Shown here: piece by piece, positions 7,195 to 12,559 of the stretch
Layout of the letters: every line of letters starts with the position of its first letter
How positions within the stretch are numbered: position 1 is the stretch's first letter
Assembly: GCA_035343375.1 (NCBI GenBank)
Contig: DAOQYW010000007.1
Location: forward strand, 6,124 to 70,123
Direction of reading: 5' to 3'
DNA length: 64,000 nt
Origin: Bacteroidales bacterium
GTDB lineage: Bacteria; Bacteroidota; Bacteroidia; Bacteroidales; ML635J-15
Program-made: the position numbers and the translations under genes
Notes under the pieces: generated by a model
What the model saw: the letters and a program-made list of their open reading frames with translations, nothing else
Told to the model about the DNA's origin: nothing
Database searches by the model: none

Positions 7195-8463
7195 ATGAAA
7201 AAGTTAAGTGTATTATTTTTAATGTGTGCATTGAGTTTTTCTGTTTTTGCTCAAAAAAATGCAGTTACCAGTGCCTGGAGTTATTTAAAGGACGGTTTTT
7301 TGGATGATGCAAAAAAGTCTATTGACAAAGCTGAAGCCCATGCAGACACAAAAGATTGGTATAAAACTTATTATTTTAAAGGTCAGATTTATCAGGAAAT
7401 AGGAATATCTGAAAAACCAAAATACAAATCTTTATGTACAGATTGTCTTGATATTTCTTATGAAGCTTATATGAAAGCAATTAAGTTAAATTTCAAAAAT
7501 CCGGATCATAGGAATTTAGATTTAACTACTGAATTAGGACTAATGCAATTCCTAACGATTCTGAATGAAGCTAATGAAAAAAATTATGAAGATACGGAAG
7601 CTTTGTATGATATTATTTTAAACAGATTTCCTGCATTATCAAATGCATTTATAAATCAAGGCGTAACAAAATATCAGGCAAATGATTTCGAAGGAGCATA
7701 CACAAATTTTGAAAAAGCAGTAATGATTGCAACTTTATCTTTCAAAGCAGATACACAATTATATTATTTTACTTCGCTTGCTGCTATGAAAGCCCAAAAG
7801 TTTGAAGAAGCTGTTCAGTTGAATAAATTACTGATTGATATGAAATTTGGTGCTGATGATGATGAAAGAGTTAGTATTTATCTTAATCAAGCTATTGCAT
7901 ACAGACAAATTGGCGATACTGCAAATATGCTTAAAACTCTTGAAAGTGGTATTAAAGCATATCCAAATGCAAATTATCCTTTAGTCATAGAAACTTTTAA
8001 CTATTATGTTAATCAGGGCGAAAATGAAAAAGCTTTTGAATATATCAATATGGCAATAGTTAAAAATCCTGAAGATGCACAGTTCTATGTAATCAGAGGC
8101 ACTTTGCTAGAAGAAATGAAACGAAAATCGGAAGCACAGGTTGATTATAAAAAGGCTCTTGAACTAAATCCTGAGAATTTTGATGCAAATTACAGTATGG
8201 GTGCTTTCTATTATAATACTGCTGTTGATACTTTGGATTGGGCAGATAAAAATATTCCTATCACTCAATTTCAGGAATTGGATAAATATAAAATCATTGC
8301 AAATGACTATTTTAGCCAGGCATTACCTTTTCTTGAAAAAGCTCAAACTCAGCAACCTACTAACTTGAATGTGTTATCGACTCTTAAAACAATTTATTAC
8401 AGGTTGATGATGATGGATAAATATAACGAGATGACAACGAAAATAAACGCTCTGACAAACTAA
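7195..8463 (+). CDS. Secreted tetratricopeptide-repeat protein
   Basis: Signal peptide ending AQ; TPR-like helices (YKKALELNPENFDANYSMG, ALPFLEKA); gyrA-TPR adjacency is common in Bacteroidota. Confidence 0.85.
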   Translation: MKKLSVLFLMCALSFSVFAQKNAVTSAWSYLKDGFLDDAKKSIDKAEAHADTKDWYKTYYFKGQIYQEIGISEKPKYKSLCTDCLDISYEAYMKAIKLNFKNPDHRNLDLTTELGLMQFLTILNEANEKNYEDTEALYDIILNRFPALSNAFINQGVTKYQANDFEGAYTNFEKAVMIATLSFKADTQLYYFTSLAAMKAQKFEEAVQLNKLLIDMKFGADDDERVSIYLNQAIAYRQIGDTANMLKTLESGIKAYPNANYPLVIETFNYYVNQGENEKAFEYINMAIVKNPEDAQFYVIRGTLLEEMKRKSEAQVDYKKALELNPENFDANYSMGAFYYNTAVDTLDWADKNIPITQFQELDKYKIIANDYFSQALPFLEKAQTQQPTNLNVLSTLKTIYYRLMMMDKYNEMTTKINALTN

Positions 8464-8487
8464 AGAACATTTTAAAAGTATATTTAT

Positions 8488-8519
8488 AAGCTGTTTGATT
8501 ATTTTCAGACAGCTTTTTT
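8488..8519 (+). terminator. Intrinsic terminator after the TPR gene
   Basis: AAGCTGTTTGA-ttatt-TCAGACAGCTT followed by a T-run. Confidence 0.7.
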
Positions 8520-8574
8520 GTTTATAATATTTATCAATTAATACAAATTGTTATAATTAAAGTATAAGTATAAA

Positions 8575-8606
8575 TTGTAAATTTGTAAATTTGTAAATTT
8601 GTAAAT
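8575..8606 (+). repeat. 4 x TTGTAAAT tandem repeat containing three TAAATTTG -7 boxes
   Basis: Exact 8-bp units at 8575, 8583, 8591 and 8599, ending 20 bp before the ATG at 8627. Confidence 0.85.
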
Positions 8607-8626
8607 ATTTATAAAAATATAGAGAA

Positions 8627-10186
8627 ATGAAAAGACTTATTTTACTTACAGCAACAGTTCTAATTTGTTTACCAGCTTATGTCCAGACACAGATTGAACT
8701 AGATTTCGGCATTTTGCAAAATGGTTCGCAATTGGCTTTAGACAGTATTTTAATTGAAAATCAGACTGCTGGTGGTGATACTATGATTTATAACTCACAT
8801 ACAGGATTTGTTTTTGATATGATTTCCGGAATACGTAATCCGAAATTAACAGAAAGCAATAAACTTGAGGTAAAACAAAATTATCCAAATCCTTTTTCGG
8901 GTGAAACTGTAATTGATATTTATGTTCCTGATAATGAGGTGTTTGTTAAAGTATTTGATTCCACAGGCAAGTTAGTCTTAAACGAAAAATATATTACAGG
9001 TAAAGGTTCCTGTAGTTTTACTTTTACACCCGGAGAAGCAAAACAGTATATTGCAAGTTTTACTTGCGGTGAACAGGAGAGTAGCATAAAAATGACATAT
9101 TCGGGGAGTTCTAAAACCAAAGCTTCTTTAGCTTTTAACGGACAAATAAATATGCTTTCATTAAAATCGGTGAAATCAGGACCATTTGTTTACAATCAGG
9201 GAGATGTATTGAATTTTACAGGATTTGTAACTGTGTGTAATGAGGCAGAAAGTACATCGTTTACTGATAGCCCGGTTGTTTCACAAACTTATAATTTTGA
9301 TTTTACATATCTTACAGTTATTCAGCCTGATGCACCTGTGAAGGAGAATTTGTCTGTTACTGAGAATACAATAAATTGGTCATGGACAGCAGTTGACGGG
9401 GCTACAGGCTACAAATACAATTTTGTAAATGATTATTCAAGTGCTATTGACCTTGAGACAGAACATTCATATATGCAGGAAGAACTGTTAGCCGGTACAA
9501 ATTACAAGTTATTTGCTTGGGCATATAATGAATGCGGAGAATCATTTTCTACAAGAATTGATACTGCAACAACTGCACTACCACTAACACAAGACGAAAT
9601 AGATCTTATCTTATCGGGTGAATCTACAGAAGCAATGTATGTTTTAAATATCTGTATTCAACCTGATACTATGGTTTTAAGAGCCATATCAACCAATGTA
9701 ATTGTTGGAGAGGAAAACTTACAGCATTTCACAGATAGGATGAAAGTAACTGTTGTTGGGACAGGAGTAGGACTAGCTGCTCCGCAAGTAGGTGTTAATC
9801 GCAGAATAATTTGGGTACAAAGGTATGACAAAGGAACAGTTGTAAACAGACCATGGGAATTATATTTCAATCCTAGAATTGTAGCTTATTCAGATACCGT
9901 AGCTCTTCGTTCGGACGGGTGTTTATCAGTGCCGGGAACTTGTGAGAGCACTTGGAGTATTGCAGGAAATTCATATCGTCCAAAATGGGTGGACGTAGAG
10001 TATTATTTAGAGGATGGCACATTTGTTCATGAGAGAATAAACCATCAGTACACTGCTCATATATTCCAACACGAAATTGATCACTTGAACGGGATAATGT
10101 TTTTTGACAGACAGGTAGAGGAGGTTCCCGAAGAGTTTACAATAATTGAAGGTGATTCTTATGAGGGGTTACCACCAATTGATTAG
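8627..10186 (+). CDS. Secreted fusion protein: T9SS-CTD-like domain + FN3 + C-terminal peptide deformylase
   Basis: Signal peptide; QNYPNPF..VKVFDSTGKLV Ig-like segment; FN3 (WSWTAVDGATGY..YKLFAWAYNECGES); PDF motifs GVGLAAPQ, DGCLS and QHEIDHLNG. Confidence 0.85.
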   Translation: MKRLILLTATVLICLPAYVQTQIELDFGILQNGSQLALDSILIENQTAGGDTMIYNSHTGFVFDMISGIRNPKLTESNKLEVKQNYPNPFSGETVIDIYVPDNEVFVKVFDSTGKLVLNEKYITGKGSCSFTFTPGEAKQYIASFTCGEQESSIKMTYSGSSKTKASLAFNGQINMLSLKSVKSGPFVYNQGDVLNFTGFVTVCNEAESTSFTDSPVVSQTYNFDFTYLTVIQPDAPVKENLSVTENTINWSWTAVDGATGYKYNFVNDYSSAIDLETEHSYMQEELLAGTNYKLFAWAYNECGESFSTRIDTATTALPLTQDEIDLILSGESTEAMYVLNICIQPDTMVLRAISTNVIVGEENLQHFTDRMKVTVVGTGVGLAAPQVGVNRRIIWVQRYDKGTVVNRPWELYFNPRIVAYSDTVALRSDGCLSVPGTCESTWSIAGNSYRPKWVDVEYYLEDGTFVHERINHQYTAHIFQHEIDHLNGIMFFDRQVEEVPEEFTIIEGDSYEGLPPID

Positions 10187-10274: not shown

Positions 10275-10679
10275 TTATAGGGCGTTTTTAATAATTTGTA
10301 TCTTCATTTCTCGATCAAAGGAATACGTTTTACTTTTAAATATTATCAGTTCATAAAGTTGTAATGATTTTTCTAGATATTTTTTAGATTGTTCAGATTT
10401 ATCATTAAATCCAATTTGTGAAATTAACTCAGCAAGAAATTCAATGTTTTCAATATTAAAACCAACAAATTTGCTAAGGTATTCATTAGAATCGTCAGAA
10501 TTTAATTTTAAAAATTTATCAAGATCAAAGTTAATTTCTTTCAATAGCATTTCGTTAACATCATCTTTTTCTGCAATAATACTTGTGTTTTCTTGCCCTC
10601 CAAATAGTTTTTGACGAATAGAACTAATTATTTGTCCGATTTTTTCGATTTCACGTAATATGTAGTCTTTTTGTTCCAT
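10275..10679 (-). CDS. Hypothetical helical protein (MEQKDYILREIEKIG-type N-terminus, DUF6483-like)
   Basis: 134-aa ORF with ATG start; the family resemblance is from memory only. Confidence 0.6.
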   Translation of the reverse strand: MEQKDYILREIEKIGQIISSIRQKLFGGQENTSIIAEKDDVNEMLLKEINFDLDKFLKLNSDDSNEYLSKFVGFNIENIEFLAELISQIGFNDKSEQSKKYLEKSLQLYELIIFKSKTYSFDREMKIQIIKNAL

Positions 10680-10687
10680 TATTGCAA

Positions 10688-11245
10688 TTAGTTTAAATGA
10701 TAATTTATTAAATCAAATTTGTATATTGTGCCATTGTCATCGGGAAAGGGAAATTCTTTCTTTATAAGGCCAATATTTTTTGACCAGTAATATTTATAAT
10801 TGTCTTTTGAAAACATTGTGATATTATAAAAACATATCCCATTAATAAAAATAGAATCCATTGTTAAGTATTCATAACCTTCAATTGTTGTCGGAGGATC
10901 ATAATAAAACCCAATATAGCGTTTTTCAAATACCGGAACAGTTGCATGACTGTATATTGAACATCCGTTTGGGTAAAACAATGAAGAATAATAGGATTGG
11001 AATAAAAGTTCTGTAGGTTCGCCATGATAATCACATCTTTCTATAAATTCAAAGGTTTGCAAATCTAAATAAACACTGTCTATCAGATCATTAATAGTAT
11101 CTCTGTAAATCCAATATGAACCGGGGTTGAAAATTACATTTGCTTTAAATTCTTCAGAGAAATAATGTTCTGGACAATTTTTGTATGGCCCATCACAGCT
11201 AAAAAGGATAAGAATTAATGTAATAAATAGAATAATATCTTTCAT
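10688..11245 (-). CDS. Hypothetical lipoprotein
   Basis: Lipobox LILFSC; FNPGSYWIY and YYWSKNIGLIKK segments; 8-bp gap to the next gene. Confidence 0.7.
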   Translation of the reverse strand: MKDIILFITLILILFSCDGPYKNCPEHYFSEEFKANVIFNPGSYWIYRDTINDLIDSVYLDLQTFEFIERCDYHGEPTELLFQSYYSSLFYPNGCSIYSHATVPVFEKRYIGFYYDPPTTIEGYEYLTMDSIFINGICFYNITMFSKDNYKYYWSKNIGLIKKEFPFPDDNGTIYKFDLINYHLN

Positions 11246-11364
11246 AATTTAAATAATTAGTGGTGTCGTCGCAGTTATTTAATCTCATCAAACTCATTAA
11301 AAAACTATTTACACAGATAGTTTGTCATTTATAAATACCTTTGGACATTATACAAAAAAACAGT

Positions 11365-11793
11365 TTATCCTACAGCCGGTATAATTACCATTTCTTCTTT
11401 AGAGTTAACATTTAATGTTAAGGTAGTTGTTATTGAGAATCCATCAGTTAAAGTTATTTTAAATGAAACTTCAGAAAACCCATTATCAATTGATAGAATT
11501 TTTACAGTTTTCATCTTTTTAATGTGCTTTATATCAGGACTGAAAAACTTTCCGTTTTTTGTATTTCCGCTTAATAATTCACTGAAAAATTGACTTGTGT
11601 TGCCAAGTAAAATATTCTCTATTTGTTGTTCACGAGTTTCTTGATCTATATAATGCATAGCATTTTCTAAATTCCCTTCAGAAATATATCCTGCAAATTC
11701 ATCACAAAATGCTTTGATTTCCTTTTTTGATAACTGGCTAAATACATTTAGGCTTAACGCCAAAATAACTATAATACATAAAAATTTTCTCAT
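11365..11793 (-). CDS. Hypothetical secreted protein
   Basis: Signal peptide ending FSQ; 142 aa. Confidence 0.65.
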   Translation of the reverse strand: MRKFLCIIVILALSLNVFSQLSKKEIKAFCDEFAGYISEGNLENAMHYIDQETREQQIENILLGNTSQFFSELLSGNTKNGKFFSPDIKHIKKMKTVKILSIDNGFSEVSFKITLTDGFSITTTLTLNVNSKEEMVIIPAVG

Positions 11794-11827
11794 AGAATAC
11801 GATTAAAATAATTATAAGCTGACAATA

Positions 11828-12559
11828 TTAATTTTCATTAAGTAAAACGTCCAGAGATTTTTGAAAATTGCTTATAGATTGACATTCGATAAAATTTGTA
11901 TTCTTTTTTGAATTCTTAAATTCAATATTGATATTTCCGGTTCCTTTTTGTCGTTTATCGGTTGTAATACTTTTATTTGAAACCATTGATTCTGCATCAA
12001 TAAAAATATCGGCAAACTGTTCAATTGAAATACCGGCTATTTTAGCTTCGCCACCGCTATATATACCCGATGAACTTTCTTCTTTTGTAACAGGAGTGTA
12101 TGTAATCGTAGATTGAGTTATTTTATATGTATTCGCATTACCATCAGAGAAAATAATTTTAACGGGATAATCAATTTTTACTATTGTGTCAAAAATCAGA
12201 TATGGACCAACACGACTTTGTACATTTGGGTCGTCAGTATCCCACAAACCGTCAAAATTCTTGACACGGGCTTTTACATACCAGTACGAATAATCGCTCA
12301 TTTTCCCTTTTATTCCACTGCATTTGGGGACATTTATAAAATCTTCGCTATCTGAAGTTAAAAAATAAAAATCTTTTATATCATTATGTTGACGACCGCC
12401 TTTATCAACAAAAATCTCTTCTGTAATTATTCCGGTTTTCCATATAAAATCCGTTTCAGTTTGTGGTATGTTTACATTACCATCGGTTTTTTTTATTTTA
12501 CATGAGAACATAATCAACAAAAAACATATCATACTGACAGCAAATAGTTTCTTCTTCAT
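11828..12559 (-). CDS. Hypothetical lipoprotein
   Basis: Lipobox LLIMFSC; 243 aa. Confidence 0.7.
   Translation of the reverse strand: MKKKLFAVSMICFLLIMFSCKIKKTDGNVNIPQTETDFIWKTGIITEEIFVDKGGRQHNDIKDFYFLTSDSEDFINVPKCSGIKGKMSDYSYWYVKARVKNFDGLWDTDDPNVQSRVGPYLIFDTIVKIDYPVKIIFSDGNANTYKITQSTITYTPVTKEESSSGIYSGGEAKIAGISIEQFADIFIDAESMVSNKSITTDKRQKGTGNINIEFKNSKKNTNFIECQSISNFQKSLDVLLNEN

Follow-up and report, generated by a model that had tools for sequence, protein, structure and literature searches.

Introduction

Peptide deformylase (PDF) is taught, and treated in drug discovery, as a cytoplasmic enzyme that acts co-translationally, and it is an antibiotic target. In the periplasm, the acylpeptidyl-oligopeptidase of Porphyromonas gingivalis serves as an N-terminal unblocking enzyme of peptide-fermenting Bacteroidota. 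PDFs of type 1B dock on the ribosome by a basic C-terminal helix (cf. 10.1101/312850). Here, we analyze a gene at positions 8627 to 10186 (forward strand) of a 64,000-nucleotide stretch of DNA, in the following called the window, which stems from a Bacteroidales assembly of 3.73 Mb and 92.8% completeness (GCA_035343375.1, contig DAOQYW010000007.1, positions 6,124 to 70,123). As assigned by Pfam, homologues, alignment, and substitution ratios, the gene codes for an export-type fusion of an N-terminal scaffold with a PDF domain. The evidence, which is computational throughout, makes it fairly probable that this is an accessory PDF made to work outside the cytoplasm.

In the literature searched, we found nothing relevant on secreted, extracellular, periplasmic, exported, or lipobox-bearing PDFs. 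In a 2025 survey of accessory PDFs in Molecular Biology and Evolution (PMC12690207), the words lipoprotein and secreted are absent, and signal peptides and the periplasm occur in unrelated contexts only. The enzyme family as such is known; the exported clade described below, its signature features, and the mounting of a PDF on the stalk of FISUMP proteins appear to be undescribed in that literature.

Results

The open reading frame (ORF) has 519 codons plus a stop codon, and there is no other long ORF at the site. A first reading of the window from its letters alone (the sequence-only reading) had proposed a fusion of a scaffold to a complete PDF domain, and this fusion is real: in a search space of 5.8 billion proteins, we found more than 70 full-length homologues of about 500–540 amino acids (aa) with 37–95% identity, all of which contain the scaffold–PDF junction. 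Nearly all of them come from uncultured Bacteroidales or Bacteroidota, and their sole annotation is "peptide deformylase". One homologue of 81% identity, from another sample, lies in the same surroundings, with gyrA, a TPR gene, the PDF gene, four small genes, and an aroA-like gene. Compared with this syntenic homologue, the ratio of nonsynonymous to synonymous substitutions (dN/dS, Nei-Gojobori) is 0.03 for the PDF domain and 0.08–0.26 for the scaffold domains, with the highest value of 0.26 in an internal domain that resembles the C-terminal domain (CTD) of type IX secretion system (T9SS) cargo. Judged by these ratios, every domain of the fusion is under purifying selection. A mis-assembled or chimeric junction, an objection that the sequence-only reading had raised against itself, is ruled out by the identical junction in more than 70 independent assemblies, including the syntenic contig from the other sample, and a non-coding or untranslated scaffold is ruled out by the scaffold ratios. 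We also considered a cytoplasmic isoform that starts internally. M339 is the only in-frame methionine able to start a PDF-only product, and because this position is leucine in one subgroup of the homologues (P0054–P0072), such a product is no property of the family.

The PDF catalytic domain comprises aa 345–497 (positions 9659..10117, + strand; Pfam, alignment, and Foldseek), and PF01327 matches aa 341–496 with an E-value of 1.4e-28 and 99.9 bits against a cut-off of 22.8. The closest sequences in the PDB are active PDFs, namely those of Plasmodium falciparum (1rl4, E 1.8e-18) and Arabidopsis (PDF1B), and identity to PDB entries does not exceed about 30%. Foldseek likewise returned PDFs as top PDB matches, with template modelling (TM) scores of 0.6–0.81 and the PDFs of phage S-SSM7 (3uwa) and of A. 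baumannii as the best ones. In the AlphaFold2 model, the block means of the predicted local distance difference test (pLDDT) in the PDF domain are mostly 80–93 and drop to 63–67 at aa 430–450 after motif 2. All three PDF motifs are present on the + strand: motif 1 is GVGLAAPQ (aa 380–387, positions 9764–9787), motif 2 is DGCLS (aa 430–434, positions 9914–9928), and motif 3 is QHEIDH (aa 481–486, with HEIDH at positions 10070–10084). The coordinates of the sequence-only reading are thus exact (G380 at nucleotide 9764, D430 at 9914, H482 at 10070, and the start of the PDF module with its extension, aa 317, at 9575).

An alignment of 39 homologues has 58 invariant columns, and in the PDF part these include G380, G382, A384, P386, and Q387 of motif 1, D430, G431, C432, L433, and S434 of motif 2, and Q481, H482, E483, D485, and H486 of motif 3. 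The metal ligands Cys432, His482, and His486, the catalytic Glu483, and the oxyanion Gln387 are all among them, so that the retention of ligands and catalytic Glu, which had been claimed for the one protein, extends to the family. With no variation at any catalytically required residue, this domain is most simply read as an active metallo-amidase. The Asp-for-Glu exchange in motif 2, noted before for the window protein, occurs throughout the scaffold family and in the closest short exported PDFs, and EGCLS is kept in the wider exported clade; by this distribution, the exchange is a clade signature. More than 95% of single-copy PDFs have EGCLS, and exact conservation of the motifs is not required for activity (PMC12690207).

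Three further features set the domain apart. A 28-aa N-terminal extension (aa 317–344, positions 9575..9658, + strand), which begins with LTQDEIDLILSG and contains a predicted helix at aa 322–328, was recognized by clade comparison, the clade consensus being FTxxExxLIxxG....MRV; it is confined to PDFs with signal peptides. CLSVPG is followed by a 7-aa insertion. At the C-terminus, there is a conserved acidic tail of 22 residues (aa 498–519, positions 10118..10183, + strand; alignment and comparison of tail charges) that closes with FTIIEGDSYEGLPPID and has the family consensus ...TIIEGDSYEGLPxI[DR]. After HExDH, the tails of 11 canonical Defs carry a net charge of +6 to +11, those of the scaffold family one of −9 to 0, and those of short exported PDFs one of −2 to +1.

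The active-site region also bears on the idea that the fold has been recruited for another formamide or small N-acyl group, for peptides with a first residue other than Met, or for a non-peptide compound. Alignment to canonical PDFs revealed clade-specific invariant substitutions beside the active site (D430, H478, Y475, and R/K428), the equivalog cut-offs of NCBIfam are missed, and a Weeksellaceae subgroup described below has even exchanged the Cys metal ligand for Asp. However, the backbone-binding elements GxGxAAPQ, GCLS, and R451 are canonical, and the position equivalent to H478 varies (I/R/K/V) among active PDFs. We therefore regard a changed substrate as improbable.

The source genome contains a second PF01327 match on contig 13 (166 bits). 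It is a 182-aa Def without signal peptide, has the motifs EGCLS and QHEYDH, is encoded directly downstream of ruvX, and shares 33% identity with the window PDF. A function of the window gene as the sole or housekeeping Def is ruled out by this canonical def, by the signal peptide, and by the TIGR00079 score. With an essential Def in the cytoplasm, a periplasmic PDF could in principle be a decoy that binds actinonin-like hydroxamates before the cytoplasmic enzyme does. Accessory PDFs lower actinonin susceptibility (PMC12690207), and the intact metal site is just what such inhibitors bind. Known resistance, in turn, is an Arg-to-Tyr exchange in a cytoplasmic, growth-supporting PDF, and the presumed equivalent R451 (in "SYR") is invariant here; a stoichiometric sink would also be costly, and selection for turnover, not for binding alone, is suggested by a catalytic Glu and an oxyanion Gln that do not vary. 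We consider a decoy function very improbable.

As to export, signal peptides were called by heuristics that consider the n-region, the h-region, and the residues at the cleavage site. The window protein begins with MKR, 14 hydrophobic residues, and a predicted cleavage site with AYV before and QTQ after it, which is a signal peptide of the Sec/signal peptidase I type (aa 1–19, MKRLILLTATVLICLPAYV/Q, positions 8627..8683, + strand). Among the 64 family members with complete N-termini, a hydrophobic h-region is found in 64 and a basic n-region in 63, with Gln at or adjoining the predicted position +1. There is no conserved lipobox cysteine in these 64 members, only one of which has a Cys near the cleavage site. 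Gln at +1 agrees with the Bacteroidetes "Q-rule" for substrates of signal peptidase I (PMC5837995). Six D(S/T)(A/I/L/M/T/V) sequons are present in the window protein, and four of them, D39-S-I, D51-T-M, D347-T-M, and D423-T-V, are kept in 35–39 of the 39 aligned homologues. This is the general O-glycosylation motif of Bacteroidota, which is used on extracytoplasmic proteins only (PMC10897501). Conserved sequons are also a trait of the closest short exported PDFs. D347-[ST] stands where canonical Defs have a Pro-x-Leu-Arg strand. The earlier suggestion that the protein is built for export is thus borne out by signal-peptide features in 64 family members, and the window gene is an extra copy beside a canonical def; signal peptide and sequons are consistent with export, short of proof. 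The predicted transport is across the inner membrane only, and the final compartment may be the periplasm or the cell surface.

A secretion by the T9SS, which had also been suggested, is not supported. The CTD-like domain (aa 86–175, positions 8882..9151, + strand; sub-cut-off profiles and AlphaFold2) is an immunoglobulin (Ig)-like beta-sandwich with a QNYPNPF-type motif and seven strands in the AlphaFold2 models. Por_Secre_tail of Pfam matches aa 86–126 with an E-value of 8e-4, below its cut-off, and the T9SS CTD models (TIGR04183 / PF18962) reach 19.9–20 bits against cut-offs of 23 and 27; the Por_Secre_tail domain model was also the seventh NCBIfam match, again sub-cut-off like the six PDF models. 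Precomputed PF18962 and PF00041 matches in homologues back the CTD-like and the fn3 assignments. The domain is degenerate in the P0054–P0072 subgroup, where NYPNPF is replaced by ESWHFD. As the CTD-like domain is internal and sub-cut-off, and as the C-terminus is formed by the 22-aa acidic tail, T9SS cargo is rejected as a prediction from known signals. In the window protein, we found neither a lipid anchor nor a C-terminal T9SS domain. The organism itself is, by its gene content, a heavy user of the T9SS: at least 150 ORFs of the 3.7-Mb source genome have Por_Secre_tail above cut-off, an unusually large cargo set.

The remainder of the N-terminal 316 residues also consists of beta domains, all encoded on the + strand. 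The signal peptide is followed by a beta region (aa 20–85, positions 8684..8881; alignment and AlphaFold2) that is shared by FISUMP relatives and has the invariant elements D39-S40-[IV], N45, and D51-T52. The CTD-like sandwich is followed by a third beta region (aa 176–235, positions 9152..9331; alignment and AlphaFold2) with invariant C204 and F224. The last part is an FN3 domain (aa 236–316, positions 9332..9574; Pfam, alignment, and Foldseek), in which W253, Y262, and N301-x-C303-G304-x-S306 are invariant; Pfam matches fn3 at aa 243–307 below cut-off (E 0.02). AlphaFold2 predicted the whole protein with a mean pLDDT of 81.7 and aa 20–320 alone with 85.9, and both models have beta strands only before aa 316. 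Foldseek with this region returned strings of FN3/Ig domains, such as fragments of fibronectin, NCAM, and gp130. In these models, the region looks like a spacer and not like an enzyme.

The kinship of this stalk to that of FISUMP proteins, proposed in the sequence-only reading, is now supported by alignment. The FISUMP protein P0087 matches the window protein over aa 2–316 with 38% identity (E 4e-52), and the homology ends where the FN3 domain ends, which is the last domain common to both kinds of protein. FISUMP domains are C-type-lectin-like ligand-binding modules and targets of diversity-generating retroelements (PMC4159848, PMC5758913). Pfam detects no PF09603 (Fib_succ_major) in the window protein. 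With aa 1–320 as query, no C-terminal module other than PDF or FISUMP (PF09603) was found on the scaffold, and hence the idea of a carrier with swappable C-terminal effectors stands for these two modules and did not extend beyond them in this search. The source genome also encodes tandem near-identical FISUMP paralogues of 455 aa (L122–L124; contig 83 at about 7749–9668 and contig 1 at about 127170–129089), which have a signal peptide (FSYSQ before and D after the cleavage site) and a stalk without FN3 that is 24–29% identical over aa 10–200.

By its relationships, the scaffold family falls within a far larger clade of exported PDFs, of which it is a single branch and which consists mostly of lipoproteins. 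In an order-level survey of 201 genomes, the full-length scaffold form was present only in the source genome. Proteins of 205–306 aa that are 44–56% identical to aa ~300–500 were found in 11 other genomes of the order (~6%); their N-termini have either a lipoprotein signal (...SCKKD, ...SCQKDD) or a signal peptidase I-type signal plus a small Cys-rich domain, and each of the 11 has the FTxxExxLI..G extension. Ten of these 11 genomes also have a canonical def. In one 95% complete genome (G034), the sole PF01327 match is a lipoprotein-type PDF with EGCLS (L025, 10003–10605 of contig 23), and no canonical def was found, which could be due to an assembly gap or to reliance on the odd PDF. Several lipoprotein members, for example those with CKKDD or CQKDD, have the K-(D/E)2 surface-export signal (PMC5080379).

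In a maximum-likelihood tree of 67 PDF domains (IQ-TREE, midpoint rooting only), a branch with 96/86 support separates all 48 PDFs with signal peptides and one membrane-anchored form from the canonical Defs that the same genomes encode, which group in a 100/99 clade. The former side includes scaffold forms, short forms, and other fusions. The window protein has the traits of the exported clade, i.e., signal peptide and extension, no basic C-terminal helix, and a position apart from the canonical Defs. Since a short lipoprotein PDF of the same genus nests within the scaffold group (100/99), the anchor is exchangeable.

An exhaustive phmmer search with aa 316–519 against 1.84 billion representatives gave 13 matches at E<=1e-30 and 827 at E<=1e-10. 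A hydrophobic N-terminus precedes the PDF domain in 99 of 144 new top representatives, 70 of these 99 being lipobox-like and 80 having the extension, and some representatives are GC-rich and clearly from other phyla. Among the parsed loci of named genomes, 61 of 66 have a hydrophobic N-terminus. Cultured carriers are Sphingobacterium, Parapedobacter, Flavobacterium, Tamlana, Reichenbachiella, and Algoriella, and carriers among metagenome-assembled genomes of gut or rumen are Alistipes, Tidjanibacter, Muribaculaceae, and Dysgonomonas. A sample of 401 genomes from across the phylum had an exported-type PDF in six besides the source genome (1.5%). The exported-type PDFs of Weeksellaceae (Chryseobacterium, Elizabethkingia, Epilithonimonas) have EGDLS, with Asp in place of the Cys ligand and intact motifs 1 and 3; examples are found in Elizabethkingia meningoseptica ATCC 13253 (L081, 2938–3561), Chryseobacterium taeanense (L075), and Epilithonimonas hungarica (L110), as well as in P0160 and P0193. 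This D/H/H metal site could be an oxidation-proof change in aerobes. In addition, five lipoproteins of about 389 aa (P0079, P0082, P0085, P0090, and P0128) contain two tandem PDF domains, a degenerate one (IAAPEIG, ETCITLPG, VQHAMTH) in front of an intact one (DGCLS).

This distribution is relevant for the view that the exported PDFs mature the cell's own envelope proteins by deformylating N-termini that reach the periplasm, as with N-out inner-membrane proteins and SRP (signal recognition particle) substrates missed by the cytoplasmic Def. Deformylation cannot proceed co-translationally once SRP is bound, and it has been proposed that N-out membrane proteins retain the formyl group (PMC5454389); more generally, exported and membrane proteins escape deformylation (PMC12690207). 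Such a housekeeping step, however, should be near-universal, and just a few percent of the genomes carry a member of the clade; the long stalk, or the lipoprotein surface-export signal in relatives, also points away from the surface of the inner membrane. Self-maturation is thus another improbable explanation, on a par with a changed substrate.

Domain fusions within the exported clade are more informative about possible functions. P0139 (821 aa) combines a signal peptide that reads as signal peptidase I-type, with Gln at +1, an exported-type PDF, and a Peptidase_M1 aminopeptidase. By analogy, this fusion would mirror the cytoplasmic order of Def and then MetAP and supports a Rosetta-stone link to N-terminal trimming; the PDF–M1 fusion favours a model in which deformylation opens blocked peptides to exopeptidases. 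P0095 (541 aa, partial) has a similar N-terminal PDF and no Pfam match in its C-terminal part. Other fusion partners of exported PDFs are an M15 D-Ala-D-Ala dipeptidase, metallo-beta-lactamase (MBL)-fold domains, a beta-lactamase-family serine hydrolase (PF00144), a transglutaminase-like domain, a 7-bladed lactonase, a TlpA-like thioredoxin, DUF1684, and DUF4886. These fusion proteins are P0256, P0162/P0225/P0103, P0096, P0098, P0100, P0238, P0151/L072/L086, and P0230, and the transglutaminase-like fusion belongs to a cluster of 122 sequences.

Several of these partners also suit a quenching or detoxification in which the exported PDF deformylates bioactive N-formyl peptides of other organisms, the gain being protection or immune evasion and not nutrition. 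Targets could be formylated leaderless bacteriocins and PSM-like or gramicidin-type peptides and, in gut species, ligands of formyl-peptide receptors. The chemistry and the evidence for export are identical to those of the accessory deformylase proposed here, beta-lactamase-family, MBL-fold, and lactonase partners are of a kind common among enzymes hydrolysing antibiotics or signals, several members come from the gut and rumen taxa named above, and the sparse accessory distribution (~6% of the order, 1.5% of the phylum sample) suits a niche-specific defence. Against this, no immunity, bacteriocin, or resistance genes lie nearby in the neighbourhoods examined, many carriers are free-living environmental Bacteroidota without a host, and deformylation alone lowers, and does not abolish, the activity of many formylated peptides. 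We consider quenching unlikely, though the least unlikely of the four alternatives.

Neighbourhoods were compared for the scaffold homologues, the short forms, and, by all-against-all clustering of flanking ORFs, 79 loci of named genomes. In these three sets, there was only synteny within genera and no recurrent partner. In Sphingobacteriaceae (L053, L072, L086, and others), ruvX lies upstream on the opposite strand in six of the eight loci with a nearby ruvX; in Bacteroidota, canonical def usually has ruvX next to it.

In the window, the upstream TPR gene ends with a terminator-like hairpin (positions 8488..8515, + strand; an 11-bp stem followed by a T-run), and sequence reading revealed three perfect tandem TAAATTTG octamers (positions 8578..8601, + strand), the last of which stops 25 nucleotides before the ATG. 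Since the hairpin closes the TPR gene and the octamers precede the ATG, the PDF gene looks like its own transcription unit. Each TAAATTTG octamer fits TAnnTTTG, which we take to be the Bacteroidetes −7 promoter consensus, and the copies may form a stacked set of −7 boxes. An imperfect fourth copy, TAAATATT, is found at 8602–9, directly 5' of the start codon. Downstream, at 10275–12559 of the window (− strand), lie four small convergent genes of 134, 185, 142, and 243 aa, at least three of which code for signal-peptide or lipoprotein-like N-termini; their order is kept in the syntenic contig (L038), where no Pfam match is recorded for any of them.

Discussion

Taken together, the window protein can be understood as an accessory PDF outside the cytoplasm. 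A cleavable Sec/signal peptidase I signal peptide with Gln at +1 would take the protein across the inner membrane, and the stalk would carry the PDF module as the stalk of the same lineage carries FISUMP modules. The enzyme would bind its metal after export and then hydrolyse, post-translationally, the N-formyl group of free N-formyl peptides, and the work at the ribosome would be left to the separate 182-aa def beside ruvX. Because the protein is predicted to be extracytoplasmic and lacks the ribosome-docking helix, the substrates are expected to be free N-formyl peptides or formylated N-termini that are exposed to the periplasm. Among the physiological roles that such an enzyme could have, the unblocking of fMet-peptides for exopeptidases is the most likely one, although we would assign it somewhat less than half of the weight. 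Lysed bacteria, signal peptides, and membrane proteins could be the sources of these peptides. Deformylation would provide the free alpha-amino group on which amino- and dipeptidyl-peptidases of the periplasm or the surface depend, and these enzymes would then digest the peptides. Such a role fits the peptide economy of the Bacteroidota.

Several observations weigh against an exported deformylase that unblocks peptides. Motif 2 is DGCLS and not EGCLS, all six NCBIfam PDF models score below cut-off (TIGR00079 with 88 bits against 103.95), and, by alignment, R428 and H478 are substitutions close to the S1' pocket that make it uncertain which first residue is preferred. Val at position −1 of the window protein is unusual for signal peptidase I, most relatives having A, S, T, or G there, and the protein showed no signal that would take it through the outer membrane. 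No conserved neighbourhood ties the family to peptidases or the uptake of peptides, PDF–M1 fusions are rare, and the lactonase, MBL, and beta-lactamase-family partners fit detoxification equally well.

If the proposal for the exported clade is true, bacteria process formyl peptides outside the cell too. This would bear on the use of N-blocked peptides by peptide-fermenting Bacteroidota, on the fate of the fMet peptides in the gut that signal to innate immunity through formyl-peptide receptors, on competition that involves formylated bacteriocins, and on the reading of "multiple PDF" genomes and the pharmacology of PDF inhibitors, as periplasmic PDFs could bind these inhibitors. The fusion also shows the FISUMP stalk to be a reusable carrier for unrelated C-terminal modules. 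More tentatively, there may be a widespread, overlooked extracytoplasmic branch of PDFs—lipoproteins, stalk-mounted forms, and peptidase fusions in Bacteroidota and other phyla—that edits the N-formyl-peptide pool outside the cell; we hold this broad view to be possible rather than probable. In that case, commensals of gut and rumen such as Alistipes, Muribaculaceae, Dysgonomonas, and Tidjanibacter could erase ligands of formyl-peptide receptors or formylated bacteriocins, which would be a new layer of host–microbe and microbe–microbe interaction.

In comparison with known systems, the window protein shares with canonical type 1B Def (EC 3.5.1.88; PF01327, TIGR00079) the fold (TM up to 0.81), the three motifs, the metal ligands, and about 30–33% identity to the enzymes of P. 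falciparum, Arabidopsis (PDF1B), and its own genome. It differs by the added signal peptide, the 300-aa stalk, the 28-aa extension, the 7-aa insertion, and DGCLS, by an acidic tail in place of the basic ribosome-binding helix, and by its position in a separate clade of the tree. Accessory PDFs such as Def2 of Vibrio cholerae and integron- or plasmid-borne forms (PMC12690207) are likewise extra copies beside an essential PDF, and the phage PDFs of Vp16 and S-SSM7 (PMC5591237, PMC3660681) have no C-terminal helix either and gave the best TM-scores among known structures. However, accessory and phage PDFs are cytoplasmic and act on nascent chains, and unlike the mobile accessory PDFs, the window gene lies off mobile elements in a stable gyrA–TPR–PDF–aroA neighbourhood. 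The acylpeptidyl-oligopeptidase resembles the window protein in the proposed logic, as an N-terminal block is removed so that periplasmic exopeptidases can act, but it is a serine peptidase of unrelated fold that releases an acylated di- or tripeptide, whereas the PDF would be a metallo-amidase that removes only the formyl group. T9SS type A cargo has in common with the window protein the Ig-like sandwich with an NYPNPF-type motif and the N-terminal Sec signal peptide (called heuristically), but in such cargo the domain is at the C-terminus, whereas it is at aa 86–175 in the window protein. The FISUMP proteins (Fib_succ_major; PF09603, TIGR02145), finally, have the same type of signal peptide and share the N-terminal scaffold as far as the FN3 domain reaches, but they carry a C-type-lectin-like ligand-binding module at the C-terminus, where the window protein has a PDF enzyme.

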